This document shows, one piece after another, positions 1 through 29,554 of a stretch of DNA of 29,554 nt (its first letter is position 1; every line of letters starts with the position of its first letter). The notes beneath the pieces are model-generated. The model worked only from the letters and a program-made list of their open reading frames with translations. It made no database searches and was not told where the DNA came from. A program made the translations under genes and the position numbers. The stretch comes from a virus. The DNA lies in the IMG/VR virus record IMGVR_UViG_3300045988_082515; one strand, written 5' to 3'.

Positions 1-119
1 GTTTTTTTTTGTAAACTTATTGCAAGTATCAACGCTGAGTACCCTACACTCTTCGGAAAGGGAGATGAAGAAGAGACTAAGGAAAACCAGGGACAAACTG
101 GAAAGGAGGAAACTTCTGA
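1..119. repeat. Terminal direct repeat copy 1, identical to 29436..29554. Circular-assembly overlap, or possibly true terminal redundancy.
   Basis: Bases 1-119 (g, T9, gtaaacttattgcaag ... aacttctga) recur base for base at 29436-29554. An ORF reads straight through the junction. Confidence 0.95.
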
Positions 120-327
120 AGAGCTTAATACAGACGAGACGATTAATCCTTTTACTCAAAAATGAAGCTGAATTATCTGAATAGATAAGGTGAGTGAAGT
201 TACCAGATTTAATTGGCATCAGATATATGATATGCAGATTAAAGAGTTCCTGAATCTTATATGCTATGTTATAGATAAAGCTAATGAAGAAAATAGACAG
301 ATTGAAGAATGAAAAAGAAAACATTAA
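1..327 (+). CDS. C-terminal -1-frame extension of the wrap-around gene that starts at 28978. Tail-assembly-chaperone-like, the long GT-type product.
   Basis: Frame 1 is open from base 1 to TAA 325-327 when TGA is read as Trp (TGA at 163, 169, 178, 310). The peptide is protein-like (...NPFTQKWSWIIWIDKVSEVTRFNWHQIYDMQIKEFLNLICYVIDKANEENRQIEEWKRKH). There is no ATG near its 5' end. It is entered from the upstream frame at the T9 run. The 0 frame instead ends at TAG 182-184. Confidence 0.5.
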
Positions 328-328
328 C

Positions 329-378
329 TGTAACCTTTTTACTCATATTTGGTACTAAGATAATATAAAAAAGTTACA
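329..378 (-). repeat. Conserved palindromic intergenic element, copy A, in reverse orientation relative to copies B and C.
   Basis: Arms TGTAACCTTTTT (329-340) and AAAAAAGTTACA (367-378) pair over 12 bp with 1 mismatch. The 26-nt loop, reverse-complemented, matches the loop of copy C at about 20/26 positions. Confidence 0.7.
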
Positions 379-384
379 TATAAA

Positions 385-409
385 ATAGGGAGTACACCTC
401 CCTATTTTC
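385..409 (+). terminator. Rho-independent-type terminator hairpin.
   Basis: Stem atagggag (385-392) pairs with ctccctat (398-405). The loop is tacac and a T-run follows. Confidence 0.6.
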
Positions 410-448
410 ATTAGCTACTAATATATAAAATAATATATTTTAACAAAA

Positions 449-937
449 ATGAATATTCAAGAATTAAAGTTCTCAAATTTAAGTGAGCTATTAAGAAAGT
501 GAGGAGATCTTATAATTTCTCTTTATAGACAGGAATTAGTTAAAACCAGATCTGATGACACTGGAGCATTAGGTAATAGTTTAAACTATATAGTTGAGAC
601 TCAGGATGGAGACTATGAGGTTAATTTTAGCTTATTAGATTATTGAGAATATGTTGAAGAAGGCAGAGCTGCTGGTAAATTTCCTCCATTATCTGATATA
701 AAGAGTTGGATTAAAACTAAGCCAGTAATTCCAAGACCTTATAATGGCAAGTTACCTACTGTAGATCAACTTGCATATTTAATTGGAAGAAAGATACATC
801 TTCAAGGAACTCAAGGAAAACATCCACTTACTAATACTATAGAATATATAGAGAACAATTATATGGAACTTCTTGATGATGCTATAACTAAAGACTTACA
901 AGGACAAGTAGATTATTATTTATTTAAAGACTTTTAA
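449..937 (+). CDS. Virion/tail-associated protein, possibly an HK97 gp10-like tail-completion or neck protein. Function uncertain.
   Basis: ATG 449 to TAA 935-937, 162 aa, with 2 in-frame TGA (500, 644). The motif LLDYWEYVEEGRAAGKFPP...IKSWIKTKP weakly resembles tail-completion proteins. The standard-code track misses this gene entirely. Confidence 0.6.
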
Positions 938-939
938 AA

Positions 940-2544
940 ATGACATTTATACCAAGTAAATTAGGAATACCAAGAAGTACAGGAACATATCCTGTTAAAT
1001 GGGAAAATCCAGGATGGGGTCTTACAGGAGTATATGATTATTGGCTATGAGGAGATGACTATTCAGAAGAGGGTCCATTAGATGTTACTATTTCTAATGC
1101 AAGTACAAGCGGTTGTACTATTAACTTTAGAAATCCCTCAACGATTACAACGGACTCTTCTACAATATTTAGATTATACCCAAGAGGACATACTACTGCT
1201 TTATTGGAAGATACTATGCCAGTTTATCTTCATAGTAAAGCCCCTGGATATTATCCTGCAAATGGCAGTATAACAGTGCCTAATACTGGAGGTACTTATA
1301 CTGTTGAATATATATTAAGTAGAGCAGATATTATTAAATGAACTTGTGATGTAGTAAATGCTACTGCTTTAGTGAGTGTTGAGGTATTAGAATGAGATTC
1401 CTGCTCTATTAAGTTTAAGATTACAGTAGATGCTAATACTGAATGAAATACTAATCTTACTGGAACTATTCAATTAGGAGCTTATTATGAAACTAATAAG
1501 TTTATTTCTTATAGTTATGGCTTTAATATTGTACAAGAGGTTAAAGCAGATATATCTCCAATATGGAAAGATTATATATGAGAAGAGGAAACTTTAAATG
1601 ATTTTATAGAATATCATCTTGATTATGCAGGAGATACTATTTATGCTGGTAAAGCTTATAAATATCCTGATGCTACAGGAGTACAATTTTTACTTAATGA
1701 TGTATCTGAAGACTTTTTAGATAACGGCATTATATTTCCATCTTTTGGAAAGACAGAAATTATACCTAACTATTTAAAAACCTTTACATTAATAACTTCA
1801 AGCGGTAGTGAAAAGCCTGTAACATTCTTTAATGATTGGTCTTATAAAGATACAGATTTAACTAAGCCTTATTTCTTAAGTGACCCTATTAGCACTTTAG
1901 TTGATTCAAGACAGTATGTATTATGTAGTTGGATATTCCCAACTGGTGAAGGTGTGCTTAATAGACGTTATACTACACCTGAAGGAGTAGTAACTAATGT
2001 AGATATTACATTAAGACAAGGAATTAATGGTTATACTTATGCAGAACCTTTAGGTAATTTACTTTTGGAATGCAAGAGTAAATATGAAATAGGATTTGTT
2101 GAATCTGGCTCTTTTACTACAACTATTAATTATCAGATTGATACTACTAATAAGAATTATGTATTATATTATACTAATGCTTATGGAGGATGGGATAGTT
2201 TATTAGTACAAGGTAATGTTAAACAAACGGATCAAATTGAATCTCAGACTTATATAAGAAAGGTATTAAATACCGCTTCTCAGTTTAGTAAAAATAAGTA
2301 TTTAAACACTATAGTTCCAGAATGGACTTTATATACTAATTATCTTACAGATACTCAAGCATCAAAGATGCACCATCTATTAGAATCTACTATGGTATAT
2401 TTACATAATCTGGAGGATAATAAGATTATTCCTGTAATAATTACTAATAATAGTTGTGAGTATAAGACATATAGTAATCAGGGTAAAAATATGTTTTATT
2501 ATACTATAGAAGTACAAAGTTCTCAAGATAAATATAGAAAATAA
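940..2544 (+). CDS. Tail/baseplate structural protein, 534 aa. Exact role unknown.
   Basis: ATG 940 is in the same frame as track ORF 1954-2544. Five in-frame TGA (1048, 1339, 1393, 1444, 1579) and no TAA/TAG. The translation is protein-like throughout (...YYTNAYGGWDSLLVQGN...). It lies directly upstream of the large tail protein. Confidence 0.7.
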
Positions 2545-2545
2545 A

Positions 2546-5500
2546 ATGAGAAAGAATATAAAACTATTTATTGCAAATAAAGAGGTTGACTGTAGTGAGG
2601 GAATTAGTCTTCCTATAACTTATACAGTTGAGGATTTCCAAAACCCCACTATAGTCAAGAACTCGTTTAGTAAGACGATTTCTATACCTGGTACCAAAAA
2701 TAATAATAAGATATTTGGAGAAATCTATAAATTAGATAGATTACAACATATTGAAGACGGTCAGTTTAGCGGTATTAATTTCAATCCTTCAAAACGAGTT
2801 GATTTTGGAATCTATTATAATGGAGATTTAATAGAATCTGGTTATATGCAATTAAATACCATACAAATTAAACAGAAGGTCATTACATATAACATTACTT
2901 TATATGGAGGCTTAGGAGATTTCTTCTATGGGCTTAAATATAAAGAAGATGGATCATTAAGAACTCTTGCTGATTTACAATACTTTATTACAGATGAGGA
3001 AGGTAATGTTTTACCTGCTGATACTGAAATGGATTTTTATATTAATAAAGATTTTGTAAATAAATCATTTAATAATTATTGGAATAGCGACTTTACTACA
3101 TTAGATAGCTTTGTTGGATTTATTCCTGCATATAATGGTTTATATGAGAATTTTGACAATGAAACTTGTTTAATAAATACAGCAGGAGACACTCTATTTC
3201 CCAAATCTGCAAGCGATGGAGGAACAACATATACTCCATATAATGGTTATGCTTTAGCACAATTAAATAGAGCTTATACAGAATGGGAAATAAGAGACTT
3301 ACGCAGTTATATGCAAAGACCAGTGTTAAAACTTTCTAAGCTTATAGAAACTATTTGTAGAAAAGAGAATTCTGGATATGATGTAATATTTGATGATTAC
3401 TTCTTTAATTATGCAAATCCTTATTGGAGCAAATCATTTGTAGCTCTTCCCTTGCTTGGAAGTAGTGAAGATGAAGAATCAGATTCTATTAAAGAGAACG
3501 CAAAGCTTATTAAATATGGAGCAGATAACTGGTGGGTAGGATTAAAACCTGGAGGAACAACAACTTCATATAATTGAGGATATACTTCTGTTGATGGCAG
3601 CGAGGTAATAGTTCCTGGAGAAGGAAATATTATTGATTTATCTGCAACACCTGCTAATACTTTAGTAAATATCTCAATGGATTTTCAGGTGTTCTTCAAT
3701 GCTAATGCTAGTTCCTCTGCAAATAATCTTTATTTATCCTATGTACGCAATGGAAAAATGGGAAATACTGAGTATCATAATGATCCGTATAGAACATCTT
3801 TAACTGTTCAGATACTTGTATATAATGCCGATGATGAATCTGTTCCATCTAAACCTATAGCATATTCTCCATTGTATAATTTTACAAATAAGATTAATAC
3901 TCAAGTTCAAGCTGGACCATCTACTTGGTTTAATTATTATCCTCTTACTGATGCTCCTGTTGAGGCTATTTATGGCCATTTTGTTAAAGATAGTGGGCAG
4001 AGGTACTATTTTAAAAGTGATACTGGAAGCAATACCTTTAGATTTGTGGTTAAAGATATGCCAAAAGTAAATAAGATAAGGGTGTCAATTCAATTTGCCA
4101 GAAGAACAGAAAGTCTCTATAATCAAGATGCTTTATGGATTTCAGATAATATGAACCCAAATAATGTTACTGCATCAAGAGTAGCAGGATGATCTGAATT
4201 TTTATATGATTCAGATCAATATACATTAATTGCAAGTTGGCCATCGGCTGTAACATCTGATGCTCTTATTACTAAGCAGAAGCTTTTAAAGACAGAATCT
4301 ACACCTGCGGATTATTTACTTAGCTATGCTAAAATGTTTGGATTATATTTTATTAAAGATATAGATTCCAAAACTATTAGAATATTTACCAGAAACAACT
4401 TCTTTAAAAATAAGATAACAGATTGGTCTAAACGAATTGATTATTCAAAAGATTTTTCAGTTAATCTATTATTATTTGATAAGAAGTGATATACTATGAA
4501 ACAAGAAGCTCCTGAGACGTATTATGCAAAGAAATATAATAAACAGTATGATATAACTTATGGGCAACAGAGATTAGATACAGGATATAATTTTAATAGT
4601 GATAATACAGATTTATACTCAGATAACTTATATGAAAATGTAATATCTGCAAGAGATGTAGATAAGTATTATAGAAACTATTTTAATAGTTCAAGTTCGC
4701 CAGTTCCCTGCTTCCTAAATGATAATATTACTTATCAATTATTCCATTCTACGTCTACTGAAAGAAAAACAAACGATCAGGATCTTTATGGAGTAAATTT
4801 CATTGATTCATCTAAGACTACAGAGTGGTGAGATGTTCCTGGTAATGATATATTTGCAAAGACTTGTTTCTATTCATTAGATAATGATGAGCAAAGTTTA
4901 GAAGAAATTAAATCGACATTACTATTTTATAATGGCAATGTAGAGATGAAAGATATTGATGGCAATCCTATTACGTATTGGATTACTGATGATATTACAG
5001 AAATGTCTGTATTAAATGATTCTGAACCTTGCTATTTATATACTACTAGAGAAACTAATGAAGCTGGTGCTAAGATTGCAATTAAAAGAACTTCTTTACC
5101 ACAATTCATAAGATATAATATATCAAGTAATTATGTAATATCTAGTTGGGATTTTGGATTACCAAGAGAAATTTATATAGATAAAATTGCATATCCAGAA
5201 CAAAGTGTTATTTATTCTCAATTCTGGAAAGAGTTCTATACTGATCAATTTGATGTTAATACTAAGAAAGTTACTTGTTTTGTAAAATTAAATGATTTAC
5301 AAGTAAACTTTGATATGTTAAGACAGTTTTACTATTTTGAAGATAGTTATTGGGTATTAAATAAAATAGATGCTTATGATGTTAATTCTGATGCAACTAC
5401 CAGATGTGAATTTATAAGAGTTCAAGACATTAATAATTATATAGGAGGAGTATCTACTTTAGGTAAATACATAGAAGTAAGTGACCCAGAAGTTACTGTA

Positions 5501-5995
5501 GGGTATGAAGCTGGAAGTAAAGTTGTAACTATAGAATCTAATGTTCCTTGGAAAGTTAGTTGGTATAATAATTTGAAGATTACAAATATTTCACCAATGG
5601 AAGGATTACCTGGAATTAGTACTATGACTATTGAATATAATGAAAATCCTAAATATATTGAAGATAACTTCTATTTAAGTTTAGTAGCTCAATCTGATAT
5701 TTATGAAAGATTAGGACAAGTACATTTTTATCAAACTCCTGATCCATCTAAATCAGTAAAGCTTTCTGGAAAAGTAATAGATGCAGATGGTAAAGTATTA
5801 GATGTACAACCTTATATCTATGTAGATAATGACAACTTTGTAGATAGTACATATTGTGATGCAACAACTGGAGAGTACTATTTATATGTTCAAAAAGGAG
5901 TTCCATTCCATTTTGAAGTACAATTATCAAGTGTTGTTAAATATGAGGAAGAACTTACTTTAAATGGAGATACTATTAAAAATATTACAATCTAA
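2546..5995 (+). CDS. Large tail-tip/host-recognition protein (1149 aa) with a BACON-like domain and a carboxypeptidase-regulatory-like C-terminal domain.
   Basis: Track ORFs 2546, 3677, 4496 and 4946 are all in frame 2 and are joined only by TGA (3575, 4190, 4487, 4829). The C-terminal region VTVGYEAGSKVVTIESNVPWKVSWYNNLKITNISPMEGLPGISTMTIEYNENP fits the BACON pattern. SGKVIDADGKVLDVQPYIYVD...TTGEYYLYV fits the CarboxypepD_reg pattern. Confidence 0.75.
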
Positions 5996-8685
5996 TGGCA
6001 CAAACAGAAATTAAAAAGGTTATTAGTATTGATACTAAGTCAAGTAATAAGTCAATAAACTCTTTAAAGAAGGATATTGATGCGTTATCTAGTTCTCTGA
6101 ATGATTTAGAGATTGGTACTAAGGAATATAATGAAACTCTTGCATTACTAGGTAAAAGACAATCAGAGTTCAATAAGATTAATGAGCAGATAGCAAGATC
6201 TTCGAGAACTACTGCTCAAAGATTTGAAAGTGTAGCTAAAATATCCACTGGGTTGGCCAGTGGATATAGTGCTGCAACTGCTGCTATTACTTTATTTGGG
6301 AAAGAATCAGAAGATTTAAATAAAGTAATGGTTAAGTTACAATCTACTATTGCTTTAGTTCAAGGTGTGGGAGGTATAAAAGATTTATTAGAAGAATTGC
6401 CTACTTTAGGTAATTGGTTTAAGAAATTAACTGATTTTATCTCTCCATTTAATACAGGGTTGAATAATGCTGCCAAAAATCTTAATCAGATTGATGCCGC
6501 TAAACTAAATAATATTGGCACTTCTGTTGGAAATGTTGGTACTGAATTGGGAAATATTTCTAAAGTTGTAAAAGATTTAGAGGGAGCCAATATTAATTTT
6601 AAAGTAGGTATGATTCAAGGAGTAATGGGCACTCCTGAGGAAATAAATTCTACTAATAAAAGTGTCTCTAATACCATTCCCATAGTTGGCAAATTTAATG
6701 ATACTGTTAAGAATTCTGCTAACAGTATGAAAGTCACCAGTGAAGAGTTAGAGAGATTAAAAAGGAATTCTCCAGCAATTGCAGCAGCATTGAATAAACA
6801 AGCAGATGCTGCGAAAGGGCTGGCAGATGGGACTTCACAAGCTGCTAAGGCAACTACAGCATTTTCAAAAGCAACTACAGCTCTTAAAACTATTGGTAAT
6901 GTAACAGTATGGATAGCTTTAGCTACAGCTATTGGATTAGCTATTAATAAGGTAATAGATTATGTATCTTCTATAAGAACAGCTGCTAAAGAGCAAGAAG
7001 AATTTAGAAAATCTATCACTGATGCTACTAATCAAATTTCTTCTAAGTCTATTGCTATATTTAAAGAGCTTCAGATAGCATATGAGAGGGTTGGAGATTC
7101 AGCAGATGCTAAACAAGAGTTCCTTAATAAATATGCAGATAAGATTAAAGAGACTGGCTTAAATATTAACACTGTAGCTCAAGCAGAGGATGCATTTATT
7201 AATAATACTGGAAATTATGTAGCTGCTTTAACAGCAAGAGCTAAAGCTCAGGCTATAGAGGAGCAAGCAATTAAAATCTACGAAGAGTATTTAAATAAAC
7301 GTTCTGAGCTTGAACATAAGATAGAAGATACTAATTTTGGAGAGGCATCTGCTTGGCAGGCTTTTAAAGCCACCGCAATGTTTTGGAAGGACTATCAAGG
7401 TCAGATATACGAATATACTAAGCAAAACAAAGAAAACACTTATAATGAGCTTTCAGACTTAAACAGAGAAATAGAAGAAAGACTTAGAAAGATGTTTGAA
7501 GATGTGGCTGAGCTTAATAAGAAATACGGAGGATTTTTTGATATAGAAGTCATTAAAAATAACACTACACAGGCTAAAGAAGAAATAAACGAGTTTGATG
7601 TATGGTTACAGAATAGACTAAATGCCAAAAATCCCGTAGACGAACTTGAAGATGAATATATTAGACTATTAGCATTAGCTATTAAGTATAATAGGGGAAT
7701 TGAAGAGGTAGAAGCTTGGCATCAAGAAGAGCTGAAGAAAATTAGAGATAAGGCTAGAGAAGATGAAGAAAATGCAAGAAAAAGTGCTGCAGATAAAGCT
7801 TGGAATGATTTCCAGGCTGAGTTAAAAAGAATCAGAGATTTATCCTCAACAAGTAATCTTAGAGAGCCAGTAGAACAGACATTCCAAACTACTTATACTC
7901 AAGGAGCATCTAAGGCATTCGGTTTGGCGGGAGACTATAATGGAACAGGTTATAAGTTTACTTACCAAAGCAGAGATGATTTAAATAATCAATATAAGGC
8001 GCAAACTGAGTATAATAATGAACTGTTAAGACTGACTAGAGAGCGTATTTTACAAGAGAATGAATTGTTAAATGAGCAACTTTCTAATGAGCAATTATCT
8101 GCAGATAGAAGGCTTGAAATAGAGCGAATTCTTGATGAGAATAAGAGAGCTTTGTCTGATGCTGAAATTAAAAACGAACAAGCTAATACTCAGGCTTATC
8201 AACACTTACAACAAGCAAGACAACAGGCTTTACAAGGTACTTTATCAGTAGCATCTAGTGTTGCAGGAAGTATGGCAACTATATGAGGAGAGGAAAGTAA
8301 AGTAGGTAAAGGATTTGCAACAGCTCAAGCTTTAATTGATACATATAGTGCAGCAAATAGCGCATACTCTGCTATGGCAGGAATTCCTATTGTAGGTCCT
8401 GCTTTAGGTATTGCTGCGGCTGCAGCTGCAGTAGTTGCAGGTATTGCAAATGTTAAAAAGATTTGAGAAGTAGATGAATCAGGTGCAAGTGGAGTGAGTG
8501 GAGCATCTGCAGCAGTGGCAGCACCAGCTGCTTTAAATACAGCTCCTGTTGAATATACTCGCAACCTATTAGGAGATAAAGAAACTGACCTTTTAAACGA
8601 ACCTGTTAAGTGTTATGTTGTTGAATCTGACATTACTTCAGCTCAAACTAAGGTAGCAGTTACTGAATCTAATGCTTCATTCTAG
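5995..8685 (+). CDS. Tail tape measure protein (896 aa).
   Basis: Track ORFs 5995-8286 and 8494-8685 share frame 1 and are joined through TGA at 8284 and 8464. The protein has long coiled-coil-like Ala/Gln/Glu-rich stretches. The C-terminal segment AQALIDTYSAANSAYSAMAGIPIVGPALGIAAAAAAVVAGIANVKKIW is typical of tape-measure proteins. Ends at TAG 8683-8685. Confidence 0.75.
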
Positions 8686-8797: not shown

Positions 8798-9391
8798 ATG
8801 GAAATTACTTATAATGATCTTCCATTATTTCAGGCAGTGATTACTGATGATTGTGATGGAATAGAATATGTTGCTTTAACAAGTAAACCAGCTACACAAG
8901 TTAACTGGGTTGCTTTTAGTAATTCTCAGAAGTTCTCGATGGATGAAGATAAGCATTTAGTAACATCTTGCTTAATGTTAAGTGATACCCCAATTTTCAG
9001 ACGAGATGAGAAACTCGGAGAATACTACATACAGTATGATAAGGAAACTCTTCGTAAAATGGCAGAGAAGATGCTGTATGATAAAAGAACTACAGATGTG
9101 AATATTGAACATTTAGAAGATTCTGATTTAAATGGAATTACTCTACAAGAAATCTATGTAAAGGATATTAATAGAGGAATATCTCCAGTTGAATTCCAGG
9201 ATGTTCCTGATGGTTCTTTATTTGCCACTTATAAAGTAGATAATCAAGTTATTTGGGATGCAATTAAAGCTGGTAAGTTTAAAGGGTTCTCAATTGAAGG
9301 TTTATTTACTTTAGAGAGAAAGTCTGATGAATATGACGAAATAAAAGAGATCCTTAATATGATTAAGAAGATAAAAAGAGTTAAACATTAA
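8798..9391 (+). CDS. Prohead protease, XkdF-like.
   Basis: Intact 197-aa ORF. The region ...DKRTTDVNIEHLEDSDLNGITLQEIYVKD... and its position upstream of scaffold and capsid resemble XkdF-type phage proteases. No TGA. Confidence 0.55.
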   Translation: MEITYNDLPLFQAVITDDCDGIEYVALTSKPATQVNWVAFSNSQKFSMDEDKHLVTSCLMLSDTPIFRRDEKLGEYYIQYDKETLRKMAEKMLYDKRTTDVNIEHLEDSDLNGITLQEIYVKDINRGISPVEFQDVPDGSLFATYKVDNQVIWDAIKAGKFKGFSIEGLFTLERKSDEYDEIKEILNMIKKIKRVKH

Positions 9392-20319: not shown

Positions 20320-20885
20320 TTTATATTCATACTTTTCCAAATGGTAAAAGATATGTTGGATTAACCACTCAGTCAGTAAATAGTAGATGAAGAGGTGGAG
20401 AAGGATATAAAGATCAATTTTTTTACAGACCAATTAAAAAGTACGGTTGAAACAATATTAAACATACTATTTATTATGTAAATAGTGAATCGGAAATGAA
20501 ATATCTTGAAAAATACTTCTTTAGCTATTATAATACTACAGATTTAAGATTTGGTTATAATAGAACTGACACAAGTAATCATCCTATAGTTTCTAATGAA
20601 ACTAAAGTTATTATTTCTGAATTTGCTAAAACTAGAATAGGAAATAAAAATCCATTTTATGGGAAGCATCATTCAGAAGAAACTAAGGAATTAATACGCA
20701 AGAAAAATCAAAACTATGGAACTAAAGCTATTAGTCAATACACTTTAGATGGAAGATTTATAAAATCTTATAAAAGTATAAGATCAGCAGCAAGAGAGTT
20801 AAACATAACTTCTTCTTTAATATCTTCAGTTTTAAGTGGCAGACAAAAACAAACTAAAGGATATACCTTTAAGTATAATATGTAA
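20301..20885 (+). CDS. GIY-YIG homing endonuclease with NUMOD3 and a C-terminal HTH-like (IENR1/NUMOD1-like) region (HEG 2).
   Basis: ATG 20301, in the frame of track ORF 20496. MSRQYVVYIHTFPNGKRYVGLTTQSVNSR[TGA]RGGEGYKDQFFYRPIKKYG[TGA]NNIKH. Both TGA sit where this GIY-YIG subfamily has conserved Trp (RW..G.GY and KYGW.N). NPFYGKHHSEETKELIRKK is a NUMOD3 unit. Confidence 0.85.
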
Positions 20886-21541
20886 TGGAAAATAAATTAA
20901 ACTGGTTTGGAAAGGTATTAGAATGAGTAGATAAATATGGATTACTAAAGATATTTAAAGCAGGGATTGGATTAATATTTATATCCTATGTAATGGTTAT
21001 TACACTTAATCCATCTATTGTTTATAATAAGGTTGTAACCTATATTGAACAAACTCACAATTCTAAAACTATTGCAAGAAATGAAGCAACTTTAAAGATT
21101 AAATATAAGCTTAAAGAATTGCTTCAAAGTACCAATGCTGATAGAGCTTGGGTTATTGAATATCATAATGGAACTACTGGATTAGGAGGACTTCCATTTA
21201 CTTATGGAGTAATGAATGCAGAGGAAGTAAAACCAGGAATAAGATCTGTAAGTAGCCATTATAAAGATTTCCTGTTATCTGACTATACTTCAATTATAGA
21301 GTTTTCTAAGAATGATGGATGGTTTGGTAATATAGATAGTTTAGAAGCAGATGATCCAAGATTATATTATGCATTTAAATCCAACAGAGTGAATGAAATA
21401 GCAGTATTTTATTTAAAGACTGAGGATAAAGATATTGGCATTTTAGGTTTGTCATTCTGTGATACACCTATGCCTTATGATACTTGAGTACATCTAAGAA
21501 GAGCTGGAATACAGATAAGTATAATTTTAAATAAAATATAA
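20885..21541 (+). CDS. Membrane-anchored GAF-like domain protein in the lysis cassette.
   Basis: ATG 20885 overlaps the HEG stop (TAATG). It is in the frame of track ORF 20993, with TGA at 20924 and 21485. N-terminal TM segment LLKIFKAGIGLIFISYVMVITL. ...NADRAWVIEYHNG...IDSLEADDPRLYYAFKSNRVNEIAVFYLKTEDKDIGILGLSF fits the GAF fold sequence pattern. Confidence 0.6.
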
Positions 21542-21542
21542 T

Positions 21543-21701
21543 ATGAAATATTGGTTAAAATATGTAATAGTAGTTGTACTATTAATGATTGCATTTTTGC
21601 TAATTAAAGTAATTCCTTTTTGGATTACTATTAGTTTAACGTTATTTGGAGCAGTGTGCTATTTTATTTACCTTTATAAACTGCATAATTCATATAAATA
21701 A
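21543..21701 (+). CDS. Holin candidate (52 aa, two TM segments).
   Basis: MKYWLKYVIVVVLLMIAFLLIKVIPFWITISLTLFGAVCYFIYLYKLHNSYK. It has two hydrophobic helices and a charged C-terminus. Its stop overlaps the endolysin start (TAATG). The ORF track does not list it because it is too short. Confidence 0.6.
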   Translation: MKYWLKYVIVVVLLMIAFLLIKVIPFWITISLTLFGAVCYFIYLYKLHNSYK

Positions 21702-22153
21702 TGAAGTATTTCACACTCGAAGAATTAACAAGATCTGATACTGCTTCAATTAAGCATATAGATAACACTCCAGATGAGAGTATAACAGAGCACCTGATAG
21801 AGTTGGTCGAGAAGCTTTTAGACCCAATAAGAGAGAGATGGGCAAAGTATTGTGATGACAATCAGCTTGGCAATGCAGGCATCAGGATTTCCTCTGGTTT
21901 TAGAAATAAGGAGCTTAATAAAGCAGTAGGAGGATCTTCAACTTCTGCTCATTTAACAGGGTATGCAGCAGATATATCTCCAATTAATGGTAATATGAAA
22001 GTATTCCAAAGTTGGATTGCTGAAGCTATCGAAGAATTAAATTGAGACCAGTTGATATATGAAAAGCCTAAGAATGGTATAGCAAGTTGAATACACTTGG
22101 GATTAAAGAATAAAGACGGGATGCAAAGACGACAGAAATTTACTATTATATAA
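21701..22153 (+). CDS. Endolysin, peptidase M15 (D-Ala-D-Ala carboxypeptidase-like) family.
   Basis: SGFRNKELNKAVGGSSTSAHLTGYAADI carries the SxHxxGxAxD zinc-ligand motif. It continues through TGA 22043 and 22088 as N[W]DQLIYEKPKNGIAS[W]IHLG, matching the family's FDQLIxE ... WxH C-terminal motif. 150 aa, TAA 22151-22153. Confidence 0.85.
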
Positions 22154-22786: not shown

Positions 22787-22999
22787 TTAATCAAATTTTG
22801 AAATAAATGTAAAATCTCTTTGTGCTAATACTCTATCTATAATATCTCCTAATTTCTTAGAATTCTCTTTAAATTCATTCATTCACTTATCAAACTCCTT
22901 AATAGTATCTTCTGACTTTTTAAGAGTTTCTTTAATATCCGCAATTCTATTTAAATATGAATCTTGGTCTAATAATAATGTATCCTTTGCTTCTAACAT
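22787..22999 (-). CDS. Hypothetical coiled-coil protein (70 aa) overlapping the helicase 3' end.
   Basis: ATG at 22999 lies inside the helicase codons GAT-GTT, in the +1 frame. One TGA (22883-22885) and TAA at 22787-22789: MLEAKDTLLLDQDSYLNRIADIKETLKKSEDTIKEFDK[W]MNEFKENSKKLGDIIDRVLAQRDFTFISKFD. Confidence 0.45.
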
Positions 23000-24665
23000 C
23001 CTTTTCAGTTTTAGTTGATTTTCTAACTTCAAAATAGTGTTCAATATCTGTTGCCTTTGCAGTTTTCTTTATACCTAAAGTCTTATATACATCAGCAATC
23101 TTATTCTTTAATAAAGCTAAACTGTAGAACATACCATTCTGAATATCTCTTGTAAGTAATTTGGCAACCTTATTTGGCATATTTTTATCTGATATTTTAA
23201 CAAGCTCCTCTTTAATATCTTTAATGCAATAACCCAAAGTTGCCATTCTTTCAAATCCCAGTTTATTAATTGCATCATTTAACCAAGGATATTTAATTAG
23301 AGCTTCATTTAATATAGGAGTCCCAACTTTAAATTTAGTTTCCCATTCAGCTCTTACATCTTTAATAAGCTCCTGAAACGACTTACTTGGAGCTTCAAGG
23401 TCTATCTTAATAGATTTATCTTCACATTCAGCAACCTTTATAAAGCCATTCTTTAAATATTCATTAGTAAGATTAACTCTTACAGAATATAAACCTCTTG
23501 CAACCTTAAAATTGAATATATCTACTTTAGCCATATTTGGGTCAAATTCAAAGGTATAATCCTCATTAATTTGAATGTATGTATCACTTGTAAAGTCTGT
23601 AATCTTCTTACGAGCTACTTCTGGAAGCTGATTGTATGATTCAACTGCAATCTTTGTTTCTTCAATATTCTTTAATGTATTATTTTTAAATGTGTCATAA
23701 TCTATTTCTGCATATCTTGTGGCTGAATAAAGATGAGTAATCCAATTTAAATATTTACTATTTCTAATTCTACCAGCAATCTGTTGAATTGAAGTAGATA
23801 TATCTAAAAGAGTCTGAGCTTTAGAGGAATCACTAACTACAATAATTCTTCCATTTTCATCATAAATATCAGAACCTTCAAATACAGTAGAAGTCAATAA
23901 ATTAATCTTCTTAGGTTCATCATTTACTGAAGAATTCTGAATTGGTAGTTTAGTTCTATTATTCTTAGAATATACTACTCTTGTGTTATCTGCTGTAAGT
24001 TTAGCCTTTAAAATAAGGTTCTTTATAAAGTCAACAGAGTTAACAAATATATAAGCATTACCTTCAACATTCCCACTTAAAAATCCATTTATAAGCTTAA
24101 TTGTAGAAGCTTCTACATTCTTGCATTTAACAGTCTGAACTTTAGTCTCAATAACATCATCCCATTCTTGTCTTACTAATGGCAGTTTAGACAATTCATC
24201 TAAAACAAATTCATCTTCTAAGGGAGTAGCAGTCATAAATGTATATTCTTTAAATAGACTATATGTCTTTAATACATCTTTAATTGCATCTCTTCTAAGA
24301 CTATATTGATTAAATAGTATATGATATTCATCAATTAATAAGCTATAATCTTTAGGATTTACTGCTTCTATTACTTTATAAAGAGAATTATAAGTAACAA
24401 TGATTTTAGGGCATTTAACTGAAGATATATAAGCTTCAATATCTGTCTTAGTAATACCTTGATAAACTCCAAAAATAGGCTCTTTACGTCTTTCATTAGG
24501 ATATTGAGCAAGTTTATTCTCAACTAAACTTACAAATGGAACACATATAACATAAGGCTTATCACACTCTAAAGCCATTGAAGTTCCACCACATCCTACT
24601 TTACCTTTGTCAAATAAGCAGTTAGTAGGTAATTCATTGATTAAATTATTTAAATAAGTTTTCAT
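22947..24665 (-). CDS. SF2 (DExH-type, DEYH box) helicase, putative replication helicase.
   Basis: Intact 572-aa ORF ending in TAG. Motifs are KGKVGCGGTS (P-loop-like), LLIDEYH (motif II) and MTATP (motif III). No TGA, and four Trp all encoded by TGG. Confidence 0.6.
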   Translation of the reverse strand: MKTYLNNLINELPTNCLFDKGKVGCGGTSMALECDKPYVICVPFVSLVENKLAQYPNERRKEPIFGVYQGITKTDIEAYISSVKCPKIIVTYNSLYKVIEAVNPKDYSLLIDEYHILFNQYSLRRDAIKDVLKTYSLFKEYTFMTATPLEDEFVLDELSKLPLVRQEWDDVIETKVQTVKCKNVEASTIKLINGFLSGNVEGNAYIFVNSVDFIKNLILKAKLTADNTRVVYSKNNRTKLPIQNSSVNDEPKKINLLTSTVFEGSDIYDENGRIIVVSDSSKAQTLLDISTSIQQIAGRIRNSKYLNWITHLYSATRYAEIDYDTFKNNTLKNIEETKIAVESYNQLPEVARKKITDFTSDTYIQINEDYTFEFDPNMAKVDIFNFKVARGLYSVRVNLTNEYLKNGFIKVAECEDKSIKIDLEAPSKSFQELIKDVRAEWETKFKVGTPILNEALIKYPWLNDAINKLGFERMATLGYCIKDIKEELVKISDKNMPNKVAKLLTRDIQNGMFYSLALLKNKIADVYKTLGIKKTAKATDIEHYFEVRKSTKTEKDVRSKGYIIIRPRFIFK

Positions 24666-24872: not shown

Positions 24873-25361
24873 TTAGTAAATTTTTGGTCAAAATTCTAAC
24901 TCACTAAAACTTAGTAGTTTATCTGATTCATATAAATCTAATGCCGATGGTTCCATATAGTAAATTTCAAAACATCTATCAAAAGAGCCTAAGTATTGTC
25001 TCTTTCCCTTAGATACATTATATTTGTTTTCTAAAGTTTGAACTACTATATTTCCGCCTTTATTTTGATTATATCCATTATTTAGGGAATTATATTTAGA
25101 TATATAATATATTTCAAGATTATTTAGCTTTATAATTAAATCTTCTAAATTATCATCTAATTCCTCTAATATTTCTCATTTAAACTTATCTATTCCGTAT
25201 TTTCTAAAAGCGTTATATAATGGATAATTATAAGCTTTATTACTTGGATCTGTACTTACAAACTTATGTTTATTCCATCTTTTGTTAATATTAGTTCTAG
25301 TTTGACCAATATAACACTTATTATTTATTGTATTAGTTATTTTATAAATATACCCTTTCAT
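24873..25361 (-). CDS. GIY-YIG homing endonuclease (HEG 3, 162 aa).
   Basis: Track ORF 25176-25361 (MKGYIYKITNTINNKCYIGQTRTNINKRWNKHKF...) continues through TGA (25176-25178) as ...GIDKFK[W]EILEELDD...YNSLNNGYNQNKGG.... There is a second TGA at 24888-24890 and TAA at 24873-24875. Confidence 0.8.
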
Positions 25362-25510: not shown

Positions 25511-25750
25511 ATGAAAACTATATTTAAATATGCAATTATTGCAACGATTATTTTAATGGGAATAGCTGGTATTAGAGTATATAATGCTTATGGAGACTAC
25601 CAAACTAAAACATTTGAGCTTAGATTAGAACAGGCAGAACTCCAGCATAAATTAGACTCTGTAATGTGGTATAATCCTGGAAGTTCAGAAGTATCTGAAT
25701 TATATGAACAGTATTGTGATGTAACCTTAAAAATTCATAATATAAGATAA
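25511..25750 (+). CDS. Small membrane-anchored hypothetical protein.
   Basis: Intact 79-aa ORF with N-terminal TM segment YAIIATIILMGIAGI. Confidence 0.55.
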   Translation: MKTIFKYAIIATIILMGIAGIRVYNAYGDYQTKTFELRLEQAELQHKLDSVMWYNPGSSEVSELYEQYCDVTLKIHNIR

Positions 25751-26184
25751 TGAAAACAGATATAAGAAGCTTAGTCTTTATAAAGAATCTATTTAAAGAT
25801 AAATATAATATAGAAATAGAATGATGTAAAGACGATTATTCCAGATATGATGGAACATTTACTTGGAATAATATAGACTATATAATTGAAGTTAAAAGGA
25901 GAAGGTTTAAATCAGATAAATATCCAACTACAATTATAAATAGGGATAAGTTTGATATACTCAGTAAATGTAACTCCATATTAGTCATTATATTTGATGA
26001 TGGAGTTTATATTTATAAAGATGTAAAAAGAGCTTTTATTAAAGATTCAATGAAATATGGAAGAAGTACAACTGATTTTGGAGGAGAATATAAATACTCT
26101 TTAAAAACAGAGTTATCTTTAAAGAAAGCAATTAAATTAGAAATAGACACAACTTTTAGTAATTATATAAGAAATGACGAATAA
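25750..26184 (+). CDS. PD-(D/E)xK nuclease-like protein (144 aa).
   Basis: ATG 25750 overlaps the upstream TAA. One TGA at 25822. ...YSRYDGTFTWNNIDYIIEVKRRRF... fits a D-x(n)-E-x-K nuclease core. Absent from the standard-code track. Confidence 0.45.
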
Positions 26185-26482
26185 TGAAATACTTACCAAA
26201 TATTATGAATTCTGCTTAGAACTAAAGGTTAAATTTGGGATGGATGATGATTGTTTTCAAATCTGTCTACTAGCTTTACTAGAAACAGATAATGCCAAAC
26301 TAAATAGTTTATTGGCCAAAAATGAATTAAAATACTGAATTGTAAGAGTATTTAAAAACAACTGGTTCAGTAAGAATAGCAGATACTATTATACATATAA
26401 ACGATATTATGAAATATTTAAAGAGCCATTAGAACAACAAACGGATAATTTAGAGGATTGGTTAAATGAAGCAGAAGATTAA
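26174..26482 (+). CDS. ECF-type sigma factor, region-2-only polypeptide (102 aa).
   Basis: ATG 26174, TGA at 26336. DDDCFQICLLALLE...LKY[W]IVRVFKNNWFSKNSRYY matches the Sigma70_r2 pattern (D..Qe.fl.l.. ... W L.ria.N...d..R). Confidence 0.5.
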
Positions 26483-26711
26483 TATTGATGATTTATTAAT
26501 TGAGTATAACTTTGAAATAGATACCTTTACAGAGATGGATGATAGATTACTTGCAATTTATCCGAAATGAGAGGCATTAAATAGAGCAGATAAGACTATA
26601 ATTATCTTATATGCTGAATATCGAAGTTATAGAGAAGTTGGGAAGATTTTGGGAATTAGTCATACGACTATTGCCAGGTTTATTAAACAAATAAGAGAGA
26701 GATTATGTTAA
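26466..26711 (+). CDS. Sigma factor region-4-like HTH polypeptide (81 aa).
   Basis: ATG 26466 overlaps the previous ORF by 17 nt. TGA at 26568. LNRADKTIIILYAEYRSYREVGKILGISHTTIARFIKQIRERL matches the Sigma70_r4_2/LuxR-type HTH pattern. Confidence 0.55.
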
Positions 26712-27031
26712 GCATACTTTTTATAGCTATTATTCTTGTCTTCTGCATTGATTTATCTGGAGCTATGGACAAGGCAAATAGATGGGTATGAAGTAAACTA
26801 TATCCTGGAGTTAAATATACTGATTGGTCTATACCTTTATTTGGATGTTCTCTATGCTGCACTTGGTGGGCAAGTTTACTATATATCTTAGTAACTGGAC
26901 AATTAAGCTTCTTAATGATTGCATATATTGCTTTAATTGCATTTATGACTCCAGTTATAAAGGATTGTATGATTCTAATTAAAGATATGATTACCAAACT
27001 AATAGATATAGTTTATAAATACTTGGATTAA
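26705..27031 (+). CDS. Cys/Trp-rich integral membrane protein (108 aa), DUF1360-like.
   Basis: ATG 26705, TGA at 26789, TAA 27029-27031. It has three hydrophobic segments and the motif PLFGCSLCCTWWASLLY. The antisense track ORF 26683-26997 is its shadow. Confidence 0.55.
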
Positions 27032-27053
27032 AAATAATATATTTTAAATAAAA

Positions 27054-27386
27054 ATGAAAGAATTAACAAAAGAACAGTATGAATATTTAAGTAAATTCGA
27101 TAATAGGTTTAAATGTGCTGTTAGAGCTAACTATTGTCGTAATATCCAAAAGGAAGATACTGAAAGGATGAGAGCTATTTATGAGGAACTAATAGAGCAG
27201 CCATATAAAATGAATATAAACTGCGGAACTTGTGTTCTTAACCTTATAAAGAGACTTGGAGTTTACTACTTTGAATATGTTGAAAAACTAAAAACTATTG
27301 AGGATGAAGGAGCAAATAAAGAAGAAAGTAGGGAGACCGAAAAAGGCAGAGGTAGAAAAGGAACAAATAGACGAAGTAAAGACTAA
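27054..27386 (+). CDS. Hypothetical protein with a CxxC motif.
   Basis: Intact 110-aa ORF. Its 3' end overlaps the terS start by about 83 nt, so the basic C-terminal tail may not all be meaningful. Confidence 0.45.
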   Translation: MKELTKEQYEYLSKFDNRFKCAVRANYCRNIQKEDTERMRAIYEELIEQPYKMNINCGTCVLNLIKRLGVYYFEYVEKLKTIEDEGANKEESRETEKGRGRKGTNRRSKD

Positions 27387-27747
27387 ATATCTTTATGCTG
27401 CAAGGTTATTTAACAAAGGATGGTCAAGGAATAAAGTAAGTGAAGAACTCCAAAGTAAATATAATGTAAGCCAATCAACAGCTGCAAGATATATTGGAGA
27501 AGCTTATAAGATAATTGCTGAAAAGAATGATAACCTTATAAAAAATCTTAGACATATACAATTATCAAGATTGGAATCATTACTGGATACTGCTATTAGT
27601 AAGGGAGATATTAGAGCTGCAAATGAGATTATTAAGACTATAAATAGTATGTTTGGATTAAATCAACCTGAGACTATTGTAGCTATTCAGAATAATGAAG
27701 TCCAGTTTAAATTTGGAGATCCAATTAACAATGACAAAAATATATAA
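27304..27747 (+). CDS. terS: Terminase small subunit (putative).
   Basis: ATG 27304. The track start at 27298 is TTG. N-terminal KKKVGRPKK, an HTH-like NVSQSTAARYIGEAY segment, and a position immediately upstream of and overlapping terL. Confidence 0.55.
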   Translation: MKEQIKKKVGRPKKAEVEKEQIDEVKTKYLYAARLFNKGWSRNKVSEELQSKYNVSQSTAARYIGEAYKIIAEKNDNLIKNLRHIQLSRLESLLDTAISKGDIRAANEIIKTINSMFGLNQPETIVAIQNNEVQFKFGDPINNDKNI

Positions 27748-28978
27748 AGGATATAGCCCATTTATCTATCAATTAAAGGTACATACTGCTATGAATGACT
27801 CATATAGGTCTGGTAAAATCTTTACAATTAAAGCAAAGAGACAGGTAGGTAAATCATTCTTAGCAGAAAATGAATTATTGAGATTCGCTATAAATTATCC
27901 TGGGAGTGTTAATTGTATAGTTGAACCAACTCTTGGACAATCTAGAAAGGTATTTAAAGAACTCGTACAAGCTGTTATAGACTCTGATATATTAAGGAGA
28001 AAGAATGAAACCTTATTAGAATTAGAGTTTAATAATGGCAGTTCTATACTATTTAGATCTGGGGAACAAATGGATTCATTACGAGGATTCTCCGTTAGTG
28101 GATTATTAGTACTTGATGAGGCAGCTTATCTTAAAGATGAAGTATTTGAAATTATTAAGCCTACCACTGATGTATGGAATGCTCCAATACTTATAATTAG
28201 TACTCCAAGGTTTAGAGAAGGATTCTTTTATGAATGCTTTAAAAAAGGCTTTGATGGCAATTTTAGCAAATATTATCAATCCTTTGATTGAGCATTAGAA
28301 GATACCTCTGTGCTATTGAGTGAGGATAAACTTGAAATGTATCGCCTTACAACCTCCAAAAATAAATTTAGAACTGAATATCTTGGGGAGTTTGCAGATG
28401 ATGATGGTTGTCTCTTTAATAATATATCTAACTGCATAATTGATAAAAAACCTGAATATCATAATCTTTATATTGGAGTTGACTGGGCTACTGGTTCTGG
28501 TAAAGACTATACTTGTATTACAGCTTTAAATGAAAATGGGCAGATGGTCTTTATAAAGTATTTTAACGACAAAACTCCAACAGAACAAGTTGATTTACTG
28601 ACAAATATATTTACTGAGTATCAGGGATTTATAAAGATAGTTCAAGTCGAACAAAACTCAATAGGTTCAGTGTTTTATGATATTCTTGTAAAAAGGAATC
28701 CTAAATTACGGATAGTTAAGTTTTTAACTACTAATAAGTCTAAAGCAGCTATTGTAAATAAGCTACAAGCTGCATTAGAAAACGAAAAGATTGGTATTTT
28801 AAAGGATGATAAACTATTAAATGAATTAAGACTATATGAAGCCAGTTATAATCCAAAGACTGGAAATGTATCATATAATGCTCCATCTGGCTTTAATGAT
28901 GATACTTGTATATCTTTAATGTTAGCTTATGATGCTTTAAATACAAATAAAGGAACTTATAATATTGCAATTAAATAA
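27731..28978 (+). CDS. terL: Terminase large subunit (415 aa).
   Basis: Track ORFs 27695 and 28310 share frame 2, with TGA at 28289 (SFD[W]ALED). Walker A is KAKRQVGKS and Walker B is LLVLDEAAY. The C-terminal part is nuclease-like (VDWATGSGKDYT...FNDDTCISL). The likely start, ATG 27731, overlaps the terS stop. Confidence 0.85.
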
Positions 28979-29554
28979 TGATAAAGAATTGGAATGAAAT
29001 GGATTTATCTCATTATAAAAGACTGTTTGAGATAATACGAAAAGACTGGGAAAATGAATTAGATATGAATTTAGCTATGGTATCTGTACTTAGTGATATA
29101 CCTATAGAAGATATAACTAATATGGAAGTAAACAAGCTACAAGAATTTATAAATAATCTTAAATTTATAGAGACCCCATATAAGCCAAAAACCCCAGAAA
29201 CTACTTATAATATTGGTAATAAAGAATATAAAGTCTTTTTTAATGTTAATAAGATGACGGCCAGTCAATATATTGACTTTCAGAATTTTTATAAGCAGTA
29301 TGATGATTTTATGCCTAATCTAGCAGCTTGTTTCTTACTACCTAATGGAAAGAAGTATGGAGAAGATTATGACCCTATTGATGAGGCAGAATTCTTAAAT
29401 ACTCATCTAACAATAGATATATTTTCAGACATAATGTTTTTTTTTGTAAACTTATTGCAAGTATCAACGCTGAGTACCCTACACTCTTCGGAAAGGGAGA
29501 TGAAGAAGAGACTAAGGAAAACCAGGGACAAACTGGAAAGGAGGAAACTTCTGA
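28978..29554 (+). CDS. Tail-assembly-chaperone-like gene, N-terminal 0-frame part. It runs off the window and wraps to base 1.
   Basis: ATG 28978 overlaps the terL TAA. The frame is open to the window end. The protein-like sequence runs up to ...EAEFLNTHLTIDIFSDIMFFF at the T9 run (29437-29445). After the run the 0 frame turns into a basic, low-complexity tail that ends at TAG 182-184 in wrapped coordinates. Confidence 0.6.
   Translation, partial: MIKNWNEMDLSHYKRLFEIIRKDWENELDMNLAMVSVLSDIPIEDITNMEVNKLQEFINNLKFIETPYKPKTPETTYNIGNKEYKVFFNVNKMTASQYIDFQNFYKQYDDFMPNLAACFLLPNGKKYGEDYDPIDEAEFLNTHLTIDIFSDIMFFFVNLLQVSTLSTLHSSEREMKKRLRKTRDKLERRKLL
29436..29554. repeat. Terminal direct repeat copy 2, identical to 1..119.
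   Basis: Exact 119-nt identity with the window start. Confidence 0.95.

Follow-up and report, generated by a model that had tools for sequence, protein, structure and literature searches.

A suppressor transfer RNA (tRNA) that reads TGA is found, according to Borges et al., in only 35% of the phage genomes that use TGA as a tryptophan (Trp) codon, that is, genetic code 4; the other 65% have no detectable one. These authors predict standard-code Firmicutes or Bacteroidetes as hosts, describe small recoded clades of 22-34 kb, and propose that recoding could act as a sensor of co-infecting phages; the clades of Borges et al. 2021/2022 comprise small ones (Garnet, Amethyst and Topaz) and large ones (Jade, Agate and Sapphire). 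Yutin et al. 2021 report the same mismatch, and propose a suppressor that is either encoded by the host or highly divergent and undetectable. A Dutch cohort study gives matching tRNAs in 13% of TAG-recoded genomes, and four of seven opal-suppressed Zeta crAss-like phages have no TCA tRNA despite 18-25 other tRNAs. Here we analyse IMG/VR virus record IMGVR_UViG_3300045988_082515, a stretch of 29,554 nucleotides that is called the window in what follows: it holds a tailed, uncultured phage of the human gut, of the alternatively coded class in which TGA is tryptophan (code 4). An original prediction, drawn from the letters of the window, presented the lack of a suppressor tRNA as a paradox. Given the proportions just quoted, the missing suppressor is a documented open problem and not a new one; Ivanova et al. 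2014, Yutin et al. 2021 and Borges et al. 2022 have all drawn attention to it. The new lead is an exchange of a fibre module between relatives of this phage and TGA-recoded crAss-like phages.

The window phage has much in common with the code-4 gut phages of Borges et al.: a low G+C content (GC), TGA read as tryptophan, structural, lysis and terminase genes that are recoded beside a replication gene with almost no TGA, a standard-code sister nearly free of TGA stops, and no detectable suppressor tRNA, as in the 65%. Its small genome, of about 30 kb, recalls Garnet and Amethyst. Unlike the phages of Borges et al., it shows no integrase and was never seen integrated, it has TGA in small genes right behind an early-type promoter, TGA is avoided in the late genes for capsid, scaffold and g10, and it has no relative in GenBank.

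Three other systems invite comparison. The Zeta crAss-like phages ('Echekviridae': c815351, 3075_90106, ctddo16, ctvkg4, ctPTU4 and Lera) also live in the human gut, with a GC of 30-33% and TGA for tryptophan; several have no TCA tRNA, and a fibre module is common to relatives of the window phage and phages of this kind. They are, however, podovirus-like Crassvirales of about 155-190 kb with 17-34 tRNAs, whereas the window phage has 29 kb, a siphovirus-like make-up and no tRNA, and its capsid, portal and terminase are unrelated to theirs. Phages of natively recoded hosts (Mycoplasma and Spiroplasma for code 4, Absconditabacteria and Gracilibacteria for code 25) have in-frame TGAs and need no suppressor. 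The window phage is unlike them in its peptidoglycan peptidase, its Bacteroidota promoters, its lack of Shine-Dalgarno sites and its use of TGA as a minority Trp codon. A host of the Mollicutes type has no cell wall and needs no peptidoglycan hydrolase, whereas the window phage has both an M15 peptidase and a holin-like gene; in code-25 phages about 90% of the genes contain TGA, which means glycine (Gly), against about 46% in the window phage, where it means tryptophan. The third system (Fakih et al., NAR 2026) is a set of tRNA-Trp(CCA) variants whose anticodon stem has 4 bp, or which bear the Hirsh G24A change or A9C; in E. coli they read UGA as tryptophan although their anticodon is not UCA, with a modest measured effect. 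Some standard-code bacteria have variants of this sort, and Bacteroides oleiciplenus expresses both 4-bp and 5-bp forms.

TGA codons in a complete genome without a tRNA

Open reading frames (ORFs) of at least 100 amino acids cover 0.815 of the window in the standard code, 0.937 when TGA is sense, and 0.829 when TAG is sense. The in-frame TGAs, 35 in number, are spread over 17 of about 37 genes (about 46%): tail genes, the large terminase TerL, the M15 lysin, a helix-turn-helix (HTH) or sigma-like gene, homing endonucleases and small early genes. A single frame of 3.4 kb stays open through four of these codons, at about 31% GC. Genes end in TAA (28) or TAG (4), and none ends in TGA.

About 70 related genome fragments were set against the window, one codon at a time. 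Where the window has TGA, changed observations in the relatives are most often TGG (89 of 130), followed by TAT and TTC, and never GGN; where it has TGG, the changed observations are TGA in 222 of 272 cases. The GGA and GGT sites of the window, which code for glycine, never turn into TGA. Across the clade, 78 of the 113 conserved Trp sites have TGA in at least one member. By this comparison of related sequences, TGA is tryptophan (code 4), and not glycine (code 25). The original prediction held that the phage needs TGA decoding for its tail, terminase, lysin and sigma-like proteins, and this is borne out by the in-frame TGAs of those genes together with the interchange of TGA and TGG.

It could be argued that the host is a code-25 bacterium belonging to the candidate phyla radiation (CPR), where TGA is glycine, or that the TGAs are true stops, pseudogenes or assembly errors: the genome has a low GC (31%), and human microbiomes do contain code-25 phages. 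We give such readings practically no chance. Since TGA interchanges with TGG and never with GGN, code 25 counts as already refuted, and so does the code-25 CPR host that the original prediction had named as its possible undoing; pseudogenes are ruled out as well. The 3.4-kb frame is open in a genome of about 30% GC, and identical TGA positions are kept across dozens of independent assemblies.

The first 119 positions of the window (1-119, no strand assigned) are identical to the last 119 (29436-29554). The window is contig k119_120176 of European Nucleotide Archive (ENA) assembly ERZ27261342, 29554 bp long, and the contig name, taken with the exact 119-bp terminal overlap, implies that the overlap is the k-mer of the assembler and that the contig closes on itself. 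The genome is thus complete and circularly closed, of about 29,435 bp, and lies entirely inside the window; consequently, truncation does not explain a missing tRNA.

On this complete genome, ARAGORN finds no tRNA in its default, circular and intron modes. With thresholds of 70-80% and with mitochondrial models, it yields sub-threshold candidates only, nearly all within coding sequence and with mismatched stems where inspected; a 'SeC(tca)' candidate at 1194-1268 was rejected for its mismatched acceptor stem and absent T-loop. Rfam gives nothing on the window at E <= 1, and a scan for UCA anticodon stem-loops finds nothing credible or tRNA-like in the intergenic gaps; under code 4, the non-coding space totals less than 1 kb. 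The window proteins have no match to release-factor or aminoacyl-tRNA-synthetase families in Pfam, PHROGs and NCBIfam, and no deaminase or tRNA-modifying family is detected among them in the same searches. The picture is the same in the relatives: the close recoded ones, about 70 genome fragments, have no tRNA whatever, and about 150 related loci, spanning both genome halves, contain no suppressor tRNA, the more distant ones having a few ordinary tRNAs (Leu, Met and Ser). The original prediction had noticed neither a tRNA nor a release-factor-like or synthetase gene, and these searches agree with it on both counts. It had also listed, with correct coordinates, the non-coding gaps in which it saw no tRNA-like cloverleaf; three of them are not featureless, and carry a palindromic element of 67 nucleotides.

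The three copies of this element are intergenic, at 320-386, 8688-8754 and 24692-24758 (no strand assigned), upstream of g2, g6 and g24. Its core consists of ATGTAACTTTTTT ... AAAAAGGTTACA flanking a conserved 24-nt centre, and the copy at 8680-8765 has a folding z-score of -8.9. The element is a simple palindromic hairpin, without acceptor or T arm, and is not tRNA-like; it is probably a regulatory site, be it an operator, a late-promoter element or an RNA hairpin.

These results bear on the idea that the phage itself encodes an unrecognised decoding factor: a divergent suppressor RNA, or an early protein that inhibits release factor 2 (RF2), or that modifies or edits the anticodon of the host tRNA-Trp. 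Both Borges et al. and Yutin et al. raise this possibility. The genome offers a conserved, structured repeat in three gaps, early proteins that never have TGA and have no function assigned (g26, g31 and the small minus-strand ORFs at 22508-22784), and four genes, g24, g26, g27 and g29, that are missing from the standard-code sister. We consider such a factor quite unlikely. Less than 1 kb of the genome is non-coding, and ARAGORN, relaxed searches included, Rfam and the anticodon-loop scan all come back empty; the 67-nt element is a plain hairpin, g24 has an ordinary fold of helicase superfamily 2 (SF2), and no deaminase, release-factor-like or tRNA-modifying family is detected.

Uneven use of TGA and the probable host

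Near-identical contigs of 28-31 kb are present in many public runs, and more than 597 entries in IMG/VR are related to the window phage by capsid protein, most of them from one human-faecal co-assembly: the clade is common and widespread in human faeces. Among GenBank phages, the window has no nucleotide match and its capsid protein has no match; TerL reaches at most 28% identity, to Thermus and halovirus-type terminases only, and neither protein places the phage in Crassvirales. The window shows no integrase; members of the exact clade were at no time seen integrated, nor on a contig longer than 50 kb. Among GTDB genomes no close relatives were found, only distant relatives of the capsid protein, in the standard code and at 27-55% identity. 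For the 32 capsid relatives resident in GTDB, the gain in coding density when TGA is sense is at most 0.05, against 0.1-0.25 in the recoded clade.

The closest standard-code relative (L148 and L041; IMGVR_UViG_3300029905_000019, 30,128 bp) has a capsid 66% identical to that of the window phage, a GC of 28%, one TGA stop among 39 ORFs, no in-frame TGA and no tRNA. Its early module is different, without homologues of g24, g26, g27 and g29. This sister genome is a depleted-stop intermediate, and matches the route published by Borges et al., in which stop-codon depletion leads to recoding.

Two more distant members of the family also gain coding density when TGA is sense: by 0.167 for L042 (3300012991_000003), whose capsid is 57% identical, and by 0.072 for L090 (IMGVR_UViG_3300011334_000349), whose capsid is 38% identical and whose GC is 0.42. 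These gains hint at further, possibly independent, recoding events in the phage family.

In the window, TGA accounts for 35 of the 118 Trp codons (0.30), while the other NNA/NNG pairs are 0.62-0.98 A-ending. Its distribution over genes, counted as a fraction of Trp observations across the clade, is very uneven: 0 of 169 in the capsid, 1 of 121 in g10, 0 of 32 in the scaffold, 0 of 89 in helicase g24, and 19 of 191 in portal g17. A larger locus set shows TGA, in at least one relative, at one of the five conserved Trp sites of g24. The Trp sites of TerL have 29 TGAs and 31 TGGs; in g21, g27 and g30 TGA has about half of the observations, in g28 roughly a third, and in g29 it has 16 of 17. Overall, TGA makes up about 15-100% of Trp observations in tail, fibre, terminase, lysis, homing-endonuclease and small regulatory genes. 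When sites are counted, TGA is present at 5 of 20 Trp sites in the head proteins, g24 and g26, against 73 of 93 elsewhere (Fisher p = 9e-6, for a grouping made once the data had been seen). Recoding affects the tail, fibre, TerL and lysis genes, g24, capsid, scaffold and g10 are nearly free of TGA, and the promoter-proximal genes g27-g30 bear it.

The host can be approached through signals in the genome. Two promoters of Bacteroidota type, with motif TTTG-N19-20-TAnnTTTG, lie at 24824-24855 on the minus strand, upstream of g24, with TTTG at -33 and TATATTTG at -7, and at 25433-25464 on the plus strand, upstream of g26 and the rightward operon. Two matches in the window are not above chance, 1.22 being expected; both sites are in the sole divergent intergenic region, oriented correctly for g24 and g26. 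Of the 21 relatives that reach upstream of g24, 19 have three promoter sites and 2 have two, with spacers that differ between relatives. The promoters proposed in the original prediction are thus found at their exact coordinates and are conserved in 21/21 relatives that cover the region, though their number in the window is at chance. The near absence of Shine-Dalgarno motifs was also rightly seen: of 33 genes, 3 have the core before their start, which is no enrichment over the 14% of the background. The sigma-70 consensus is under-represented or not enriched in the window.

Further signals come from relatives. Chitinophaga, Mucilaginibacter, Dysgonomonas and a number of Bacteroidia have distant capsid relatives, at 27-55% identity, as prophages in their chromosomes, and a homologue of g24, 45% identical, lies in the chromosome of Hymenobacter sp. 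J193. Some markers put forward earlier have to be abandoned: for the BACON and CarboxypepD_reg domains assigned to the C-terminus of g4, Pfam has no match even at E <= 5, the BspA-type leucine-rich repeats come down to a single sub-threshold DUF285 match, and we rejected these domains as host markers. Promoters, the lack of Shine-Dalgarno sites, prophage relatives, the Hymenobacter helicase homologue and the crAss-like fibre module described below support a walled Bacteroidota host. A standard-code member of the order Bacteroidales is most likely. A phage that uses code 4 need not have a host that does: gut phages that are recoded, and whose Bacteroidota or Firmicutes hosts keep the standard code, form a recognised group.

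The explanation that we favour, with chances we would call about even, is that a standard-code Bacteroidales host reads UGA as tryptophan with its own machinery, at a usable but limited rate. The reading of UGA would be supplied in trans by the infected cell, whose Trp-decoding machinery would compete with RF2; possible sources are a resident tRNA(UCA) and a tRNA-Trp(CCA) variant whose anticodon stem has 4 bp or which has a change of the A9C/G24A type. Inefficient decoding would keep TGA from the high-copy capsid, scaffold and g10 proteins, and almost wholly from the first-expressed helicase. Genes of low-copy products (tail, fibre, terminase, lysis, regulators and homing endonucleases) would tolerate TGA, which would also lower or delay their expression. 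A limited efficiency would explain both the minority share of TGA and its exclusion from high-copy proteins and the helicase. It would also explain the freer use of TGA in large phages that appear to share the host, some members of whose family carry their own suppressor. If the source is a tRNA-Trp(CCA) variant with a 4-bp stem, A9C or G24A, a search of host bins for tRNA-Trp(UCA) alone would miss it.

Several observations weigh against this explanation. The standard-code host is a deduction; a few phage-sized gut contigs with capsid relatives are binned with metagenome-assembled genomes of Clostridia, which is weak evidence, and iPHoP places some opal-recoded Zeta crAss-like phages in Erysipelotrichaceae. 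Near-cognate readthrough, as measured so far, is modest, about 2.5-fold with an over-expressed tRNA, while g3 and g4, with 4-5 TGAs, and the fibre module, with 8, would need a high efficiency per codon. Strong competition by RF2 would predict a bias against strong termination contexts, and none is significant: the bases that follow TGA and those that follow TGG are not significantly different (p = 0.08; for T versus non-T, p = 0.44). Finally, g27-g30, right behind the rightward promoter, already carry TGA, which implies that decoding must exist from the start of infection. Context-dependent readthrough was a candidate in its own right, and was rejected on the same comparison of following bases.

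The last two points would suit a native code-4 host, an undescribed walled lineage whose code the phage mirrors: such a phage needs no decoding machinery, it may have TGA even beside an early promoter, and no context bias after TGA is called for. Moreover, new walled code-4 lineages are still emerging from mammalian guts, for example in the Eggerthellaceae. A change of UGA to tryptophan is reported in Bacillota, Pseudomonadota, Verrucomicrobiota, Actinomycetota and one family of Patescibacteriota, and not in Bacteroidota, despite dense sampling of the human gut and a phage clade that is common in faeces. TGA is only 30% of the Trp codons of the window phage, against a strong A-ending bias elsewhere, and it is avoided in capsid, scaffold and helicase. 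In Mollicutes, TGA is the predominant Trp codon. The closest sister, in the standard code, has hardly any TGA, and none of the 32 capsid relatives in GTDB has a large gain in coding density (at most 0.05, against 0.1-0.25). In addition, the crAss-like phages that share a fibre with relatives of the window phage have TGA at 0.65-0.72 of the Trp codons in the fibre region, so that two phages that seem to have the same host differ sharply. We hold a native code-4 host to be very unlikely, and the least likely of the serious options. The original prediction had proposed either such a lineage or a decoding function encoded by a host or helper: the second is now the leading class, and the first is made unlikely by the 30% share of TGA, its avoidance, the sister genome and the lack of code-4 Bacteroidota.

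A fibre module common to small and large phages

A 148-kb IMG/VR contig (L149, IMGVR_UViG_3300045988_175865, contig positions 105705-125962; also L013 and L093) has a clade member at its end. We considered that it might be a prophage in host DNA and rejected this: walking upstream shows that the contig is chimeric, part large crAss-like phage and part small phage. About 118.8 kb of large phage is joined to one small-phage unit through a tail-fibre segment of 2,256 nucleotides that occurs twice, at 116530-118785 and at 146376-148631.

The segment, or module, is found in independent contigs of both kinds, and is thus not just an assembly artefact. A 30.8-kb small-phage contig (L017) has it in full length at 95.4% identity, a second one (L113) at 90% over 1,682 nt, two more small-phage contigs have partial copies, and 11 large-phage contigs of 85-168 kb have it at 89-99% identity. 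The module is one code-4 ORF with 8 TGAs, 7 of which are retained in the small-phage copy, and it replaces the C-terminal part of g11 in some close relatives of the window phage. The window's own g11 has, over residues 585-731, only 38-40% amino-acid identity to the large-phage fibre. Judging from these copies, relatives of the window phage have recently exchanged receptor-binding genes with TGA-recoded crAss-like phages, and a fibre exchange at 90-100% nucleotide identity implies that the two had one host in common and co-infected it.

The large phages, roughly 165 kb in size, have a GC of 32-34%, and reading TGA as sense lifts their ORF coverage by 0.3-0.4; TGA accounts for 0.65-0.72 of the Trp codons of their fibre region, and for 0.30 of those of the window phage. 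They show no enrichment of Shine-Dalgarno motifs, some promoters are like those of the small phage, and the portal matches crAss-like portals. GenBank phages give no nucleotide match to the large phage, and no tRNA lies within about 30 kb around the fibre genes, in genomes of up to about 168 kb. The family may include Zeta phage c815351, which bears a TCA suppressor tRNA; MT835470, related to the large phage by its portal, has neither recoding nor a tRNA.

Sister branches of the large phages (L158 and L159; IMGVR_UViG_3300045988_095150 and 3300013383_000001) are TAG-recoded, with gains of 0.34-0.46 when TAG is sense. A single family thus switches its code between branches that are evolutionarily close.

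A shared host and past co-infection raise the question of a helper: a TGA-recoded crAss-like phage of the Zeta group, co-infecting or persistent, or a recoded prophage, could express a tRNA-Sup(UCA), and the TGA codons of the small phage would then mark its dependence on this partner or act as a sensor for it. The common module with its 8 TGAs, the heavy recoding and crAss-like portal of the large phages, the apparent kinship of one family member with c815351 and its TCA suppressor tRNA, and the proposal by Borges et al. that recoding is a sensor of co-infection all speak for this. Yet the small phage has a full set of replication, packaging, virion and lysis genes and more than 597 matches in IMG/VR, and obligate co-infection would be a severe handicap. 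The large phages show no tRNA in about 30 kb, the window's own fibre is only distantly similar to theirs (38-40%), and the four of seven opal-suppressed Zeta phages without a TCA tRNA point to a property of the host, and not to a helper. On balance a helper seems unlikely.

In its strongest form, which we find quite unlikely, the conjecture is that the small phage is tied by its code to the large crAss-like phages of the same Bacteroidales host, and needs their opal suppression to synthesize its tail, terminase and lysis proteins. Such a code-based relation may make TGA codons a sensor of co-infection, or a form of dependence, between two otherwise autonomous phages. On an equal footing with this stands a variant in which a TGA-free early protein of the small phage may reprogram UGA decoding in the host without any tRNA gene.

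Gene map and significance of the clade

We now turn to the genes themselves, beginning at the junction of the circle. Gene g34 (28978..29554, plus strand) runs over the junction to position 184 and yields 213 amino acids in the junction translation. A run of nine Ts at 29437-29445 (equivalent to 2-10) lies where its frame meets the -1 frame of g1, at 1-327 on the plus strand, which has in-frame TGAs at 163, 169, 178 and 310. Across the clade the Trp sites of g1 are TGA (83) or TGG (33) and nothing else, and the 0-frame product of g34 aligns over 207 amino acids with a protein of the sister genome; the solely TGA/TGG variation of g1 makes both frames appear coding. The two genes are probably a programmed -1 frameshift pair, which resembles the tail-chaperone G/GT pair, and differs from it in being placed just after the terminase gene.

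The tail module, g2-g5, occupies 449..8685 on the plus strand, as code-4 ORFs with PHROG matches to tail-completion and tape-measure proteins. It starts with g2, a neck or tail completion gene (TGA at 500 and 644), and continues with g3 (TGA at 1048, 1339, 1393, 1444 and 1579), g4, of 1149 amino acids (TGA at 3575, 4190, 4487 and 4829), and g5, the tape-measure protein (TGA at 8284 and 8464), whose presence suggests a siphovirus-like phage. In some public annotations of close relatives (Logan contigs), the genes of this module are called in full length. The head module, at 8798..12090 on the plus strand, is free of TGA, and consists of prohead protease g6, GIY-YIG endonuclease g7, scaffold-like g8, major capsid protein g9, which is HK97-type, and g10; its assignment is based on Pfam Peptidase_S78_2 and GIY-YIG and on PHROG head-protein families. 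The fibre or receptor-binding region, g11-g15, lies at 12181..17632 on the plus strand (Pfam Phage_tail_C), with TGAs in g11 (12661), g12 (14996) and g15 (17333, 17375 and 17390); g13 and g14 are also in this region. Portal gene g17 (18119..19201, plus strand; Pfam Phage_portal, E = 7e-16) has no TGA in the window.

The lysis region (20885..22153, plus strand) holds three genes in the same direction: g21, a membrane protein with TGA at 20924 and 21485; a holin-like protein of 52 amino acids with two transmembrane segments, at 21543-21701; and g22, an M15 peptidoglycan peptidase (Pfam Peptidase_M15_3, E = 7e-14), whose TGAs at 22043 and 22088 precede the C-terminal His of the WIHLG motif. A holin and an M15 peptidase had been proposed before: the peptidase is confirmed by Pfam and by a match to PDB 1LBU, and the two-transmembrane ORF directly upstream of it looks like a holin. 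TerL is g33 (27695..28978, plus strand; Pfam Terminase_6N and Terminase_6C), and its TGA, at 28289, is codon 199 of 428.

The only large leftward gene is g24 (22947..24665, minus strand), an SF2 (DExH) helicase-like protein of 572 amino acids. Its AlphaFold model, with a mean pLDDT (predicted local distance difference test) of 81, is matched by Foldseek to SF2 helicases (Mfd, DEAD-box and RecQ) at E about 1e-8. A role related to translation was rejected for this protein, since its predicted structure suggests a generic SF2 helicase fold instead.

Downstream of the rightward promoter, small genes g26-g30 lie at 25511..27031 on the plus strand: g26 has no TGA, and g27, g28, g29 and the membrane protein g30 have one each, at 25822, 26336, 26568 and 26789. 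The product of g28 weakly resembles sigma region 2, and g29, of 81 amino acids, is an HTH protein that resembles sigma-70 region 4. The 'sigma' gene of the original prediction stands in part: its HTH passes the HTH_50 threshold, and remains under the Pfam thresholds for sigma-70 region 4. The two genes (26174-26711) overlap by 17 nt in different frames, with one TGA each, and may be a split or frameshifted small sigma factor of the extracytoplasmic function (ECF) type.

Four homing-type endonuclease genes are present. GIY-YIG gene g7 (9402-10004; Pfam) is absent from several near-identical relatives (L002-L008), which implies that the endonuclease genes are mobile. GIY-YIG homing endonuclease g25 (24873..25361, minus strand; Pfam GIY-YIG; TGA at 25178 and 24890) interrupts the divergent promoter region, where the promoter is duplicated as an inverted repeat, 24807-24874 / 25414-25481. 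The other two are g20 (20301-20885), with NUMOD and I-HmuI-like domains and TGA at 20388 and 20448, and the HNH endonuclease g23 (22156-22494; Pfam).

Some smaller features complete the map. An AT-rich leader of 34 nt (TACnAATnTATAAAnT..TATATTTTAAnAAAA) stands at 416-449, 8765-8798 and 27020-27053, directly before the starts of g2, g6 and g31. Two or three conserved leftward ORFs of 44-70 amino acids lie downstream of g24, at 22508-22999 on the minus strand, one of them with a TGA at 22885; small leftward ORFs fill the 450-nt stretch 22495-22946. A bidirectional terminator at 22477-22505 divides the convergent units.

The clade offers a clean test case: a complete genome of 29.4 kb, very common in faeces, with about 70 tRNA-less relative fragments, a nearly TGA-free sister, and TGA in promoter-proximal regulators. 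The asymmetry of codon use and the fibre exchange make this phage a good system for finding the decoding source of tRNA-less recoded phages, and the exchange establishes that a host is shared and puts forward a candidate helper. If the host does the decoding, for example with a UGA-reading tRNA-Trp(CCA), the prediction of phage genetic codes and of host range would change; if a helper does it, this would be a new kind of dependence between phages.

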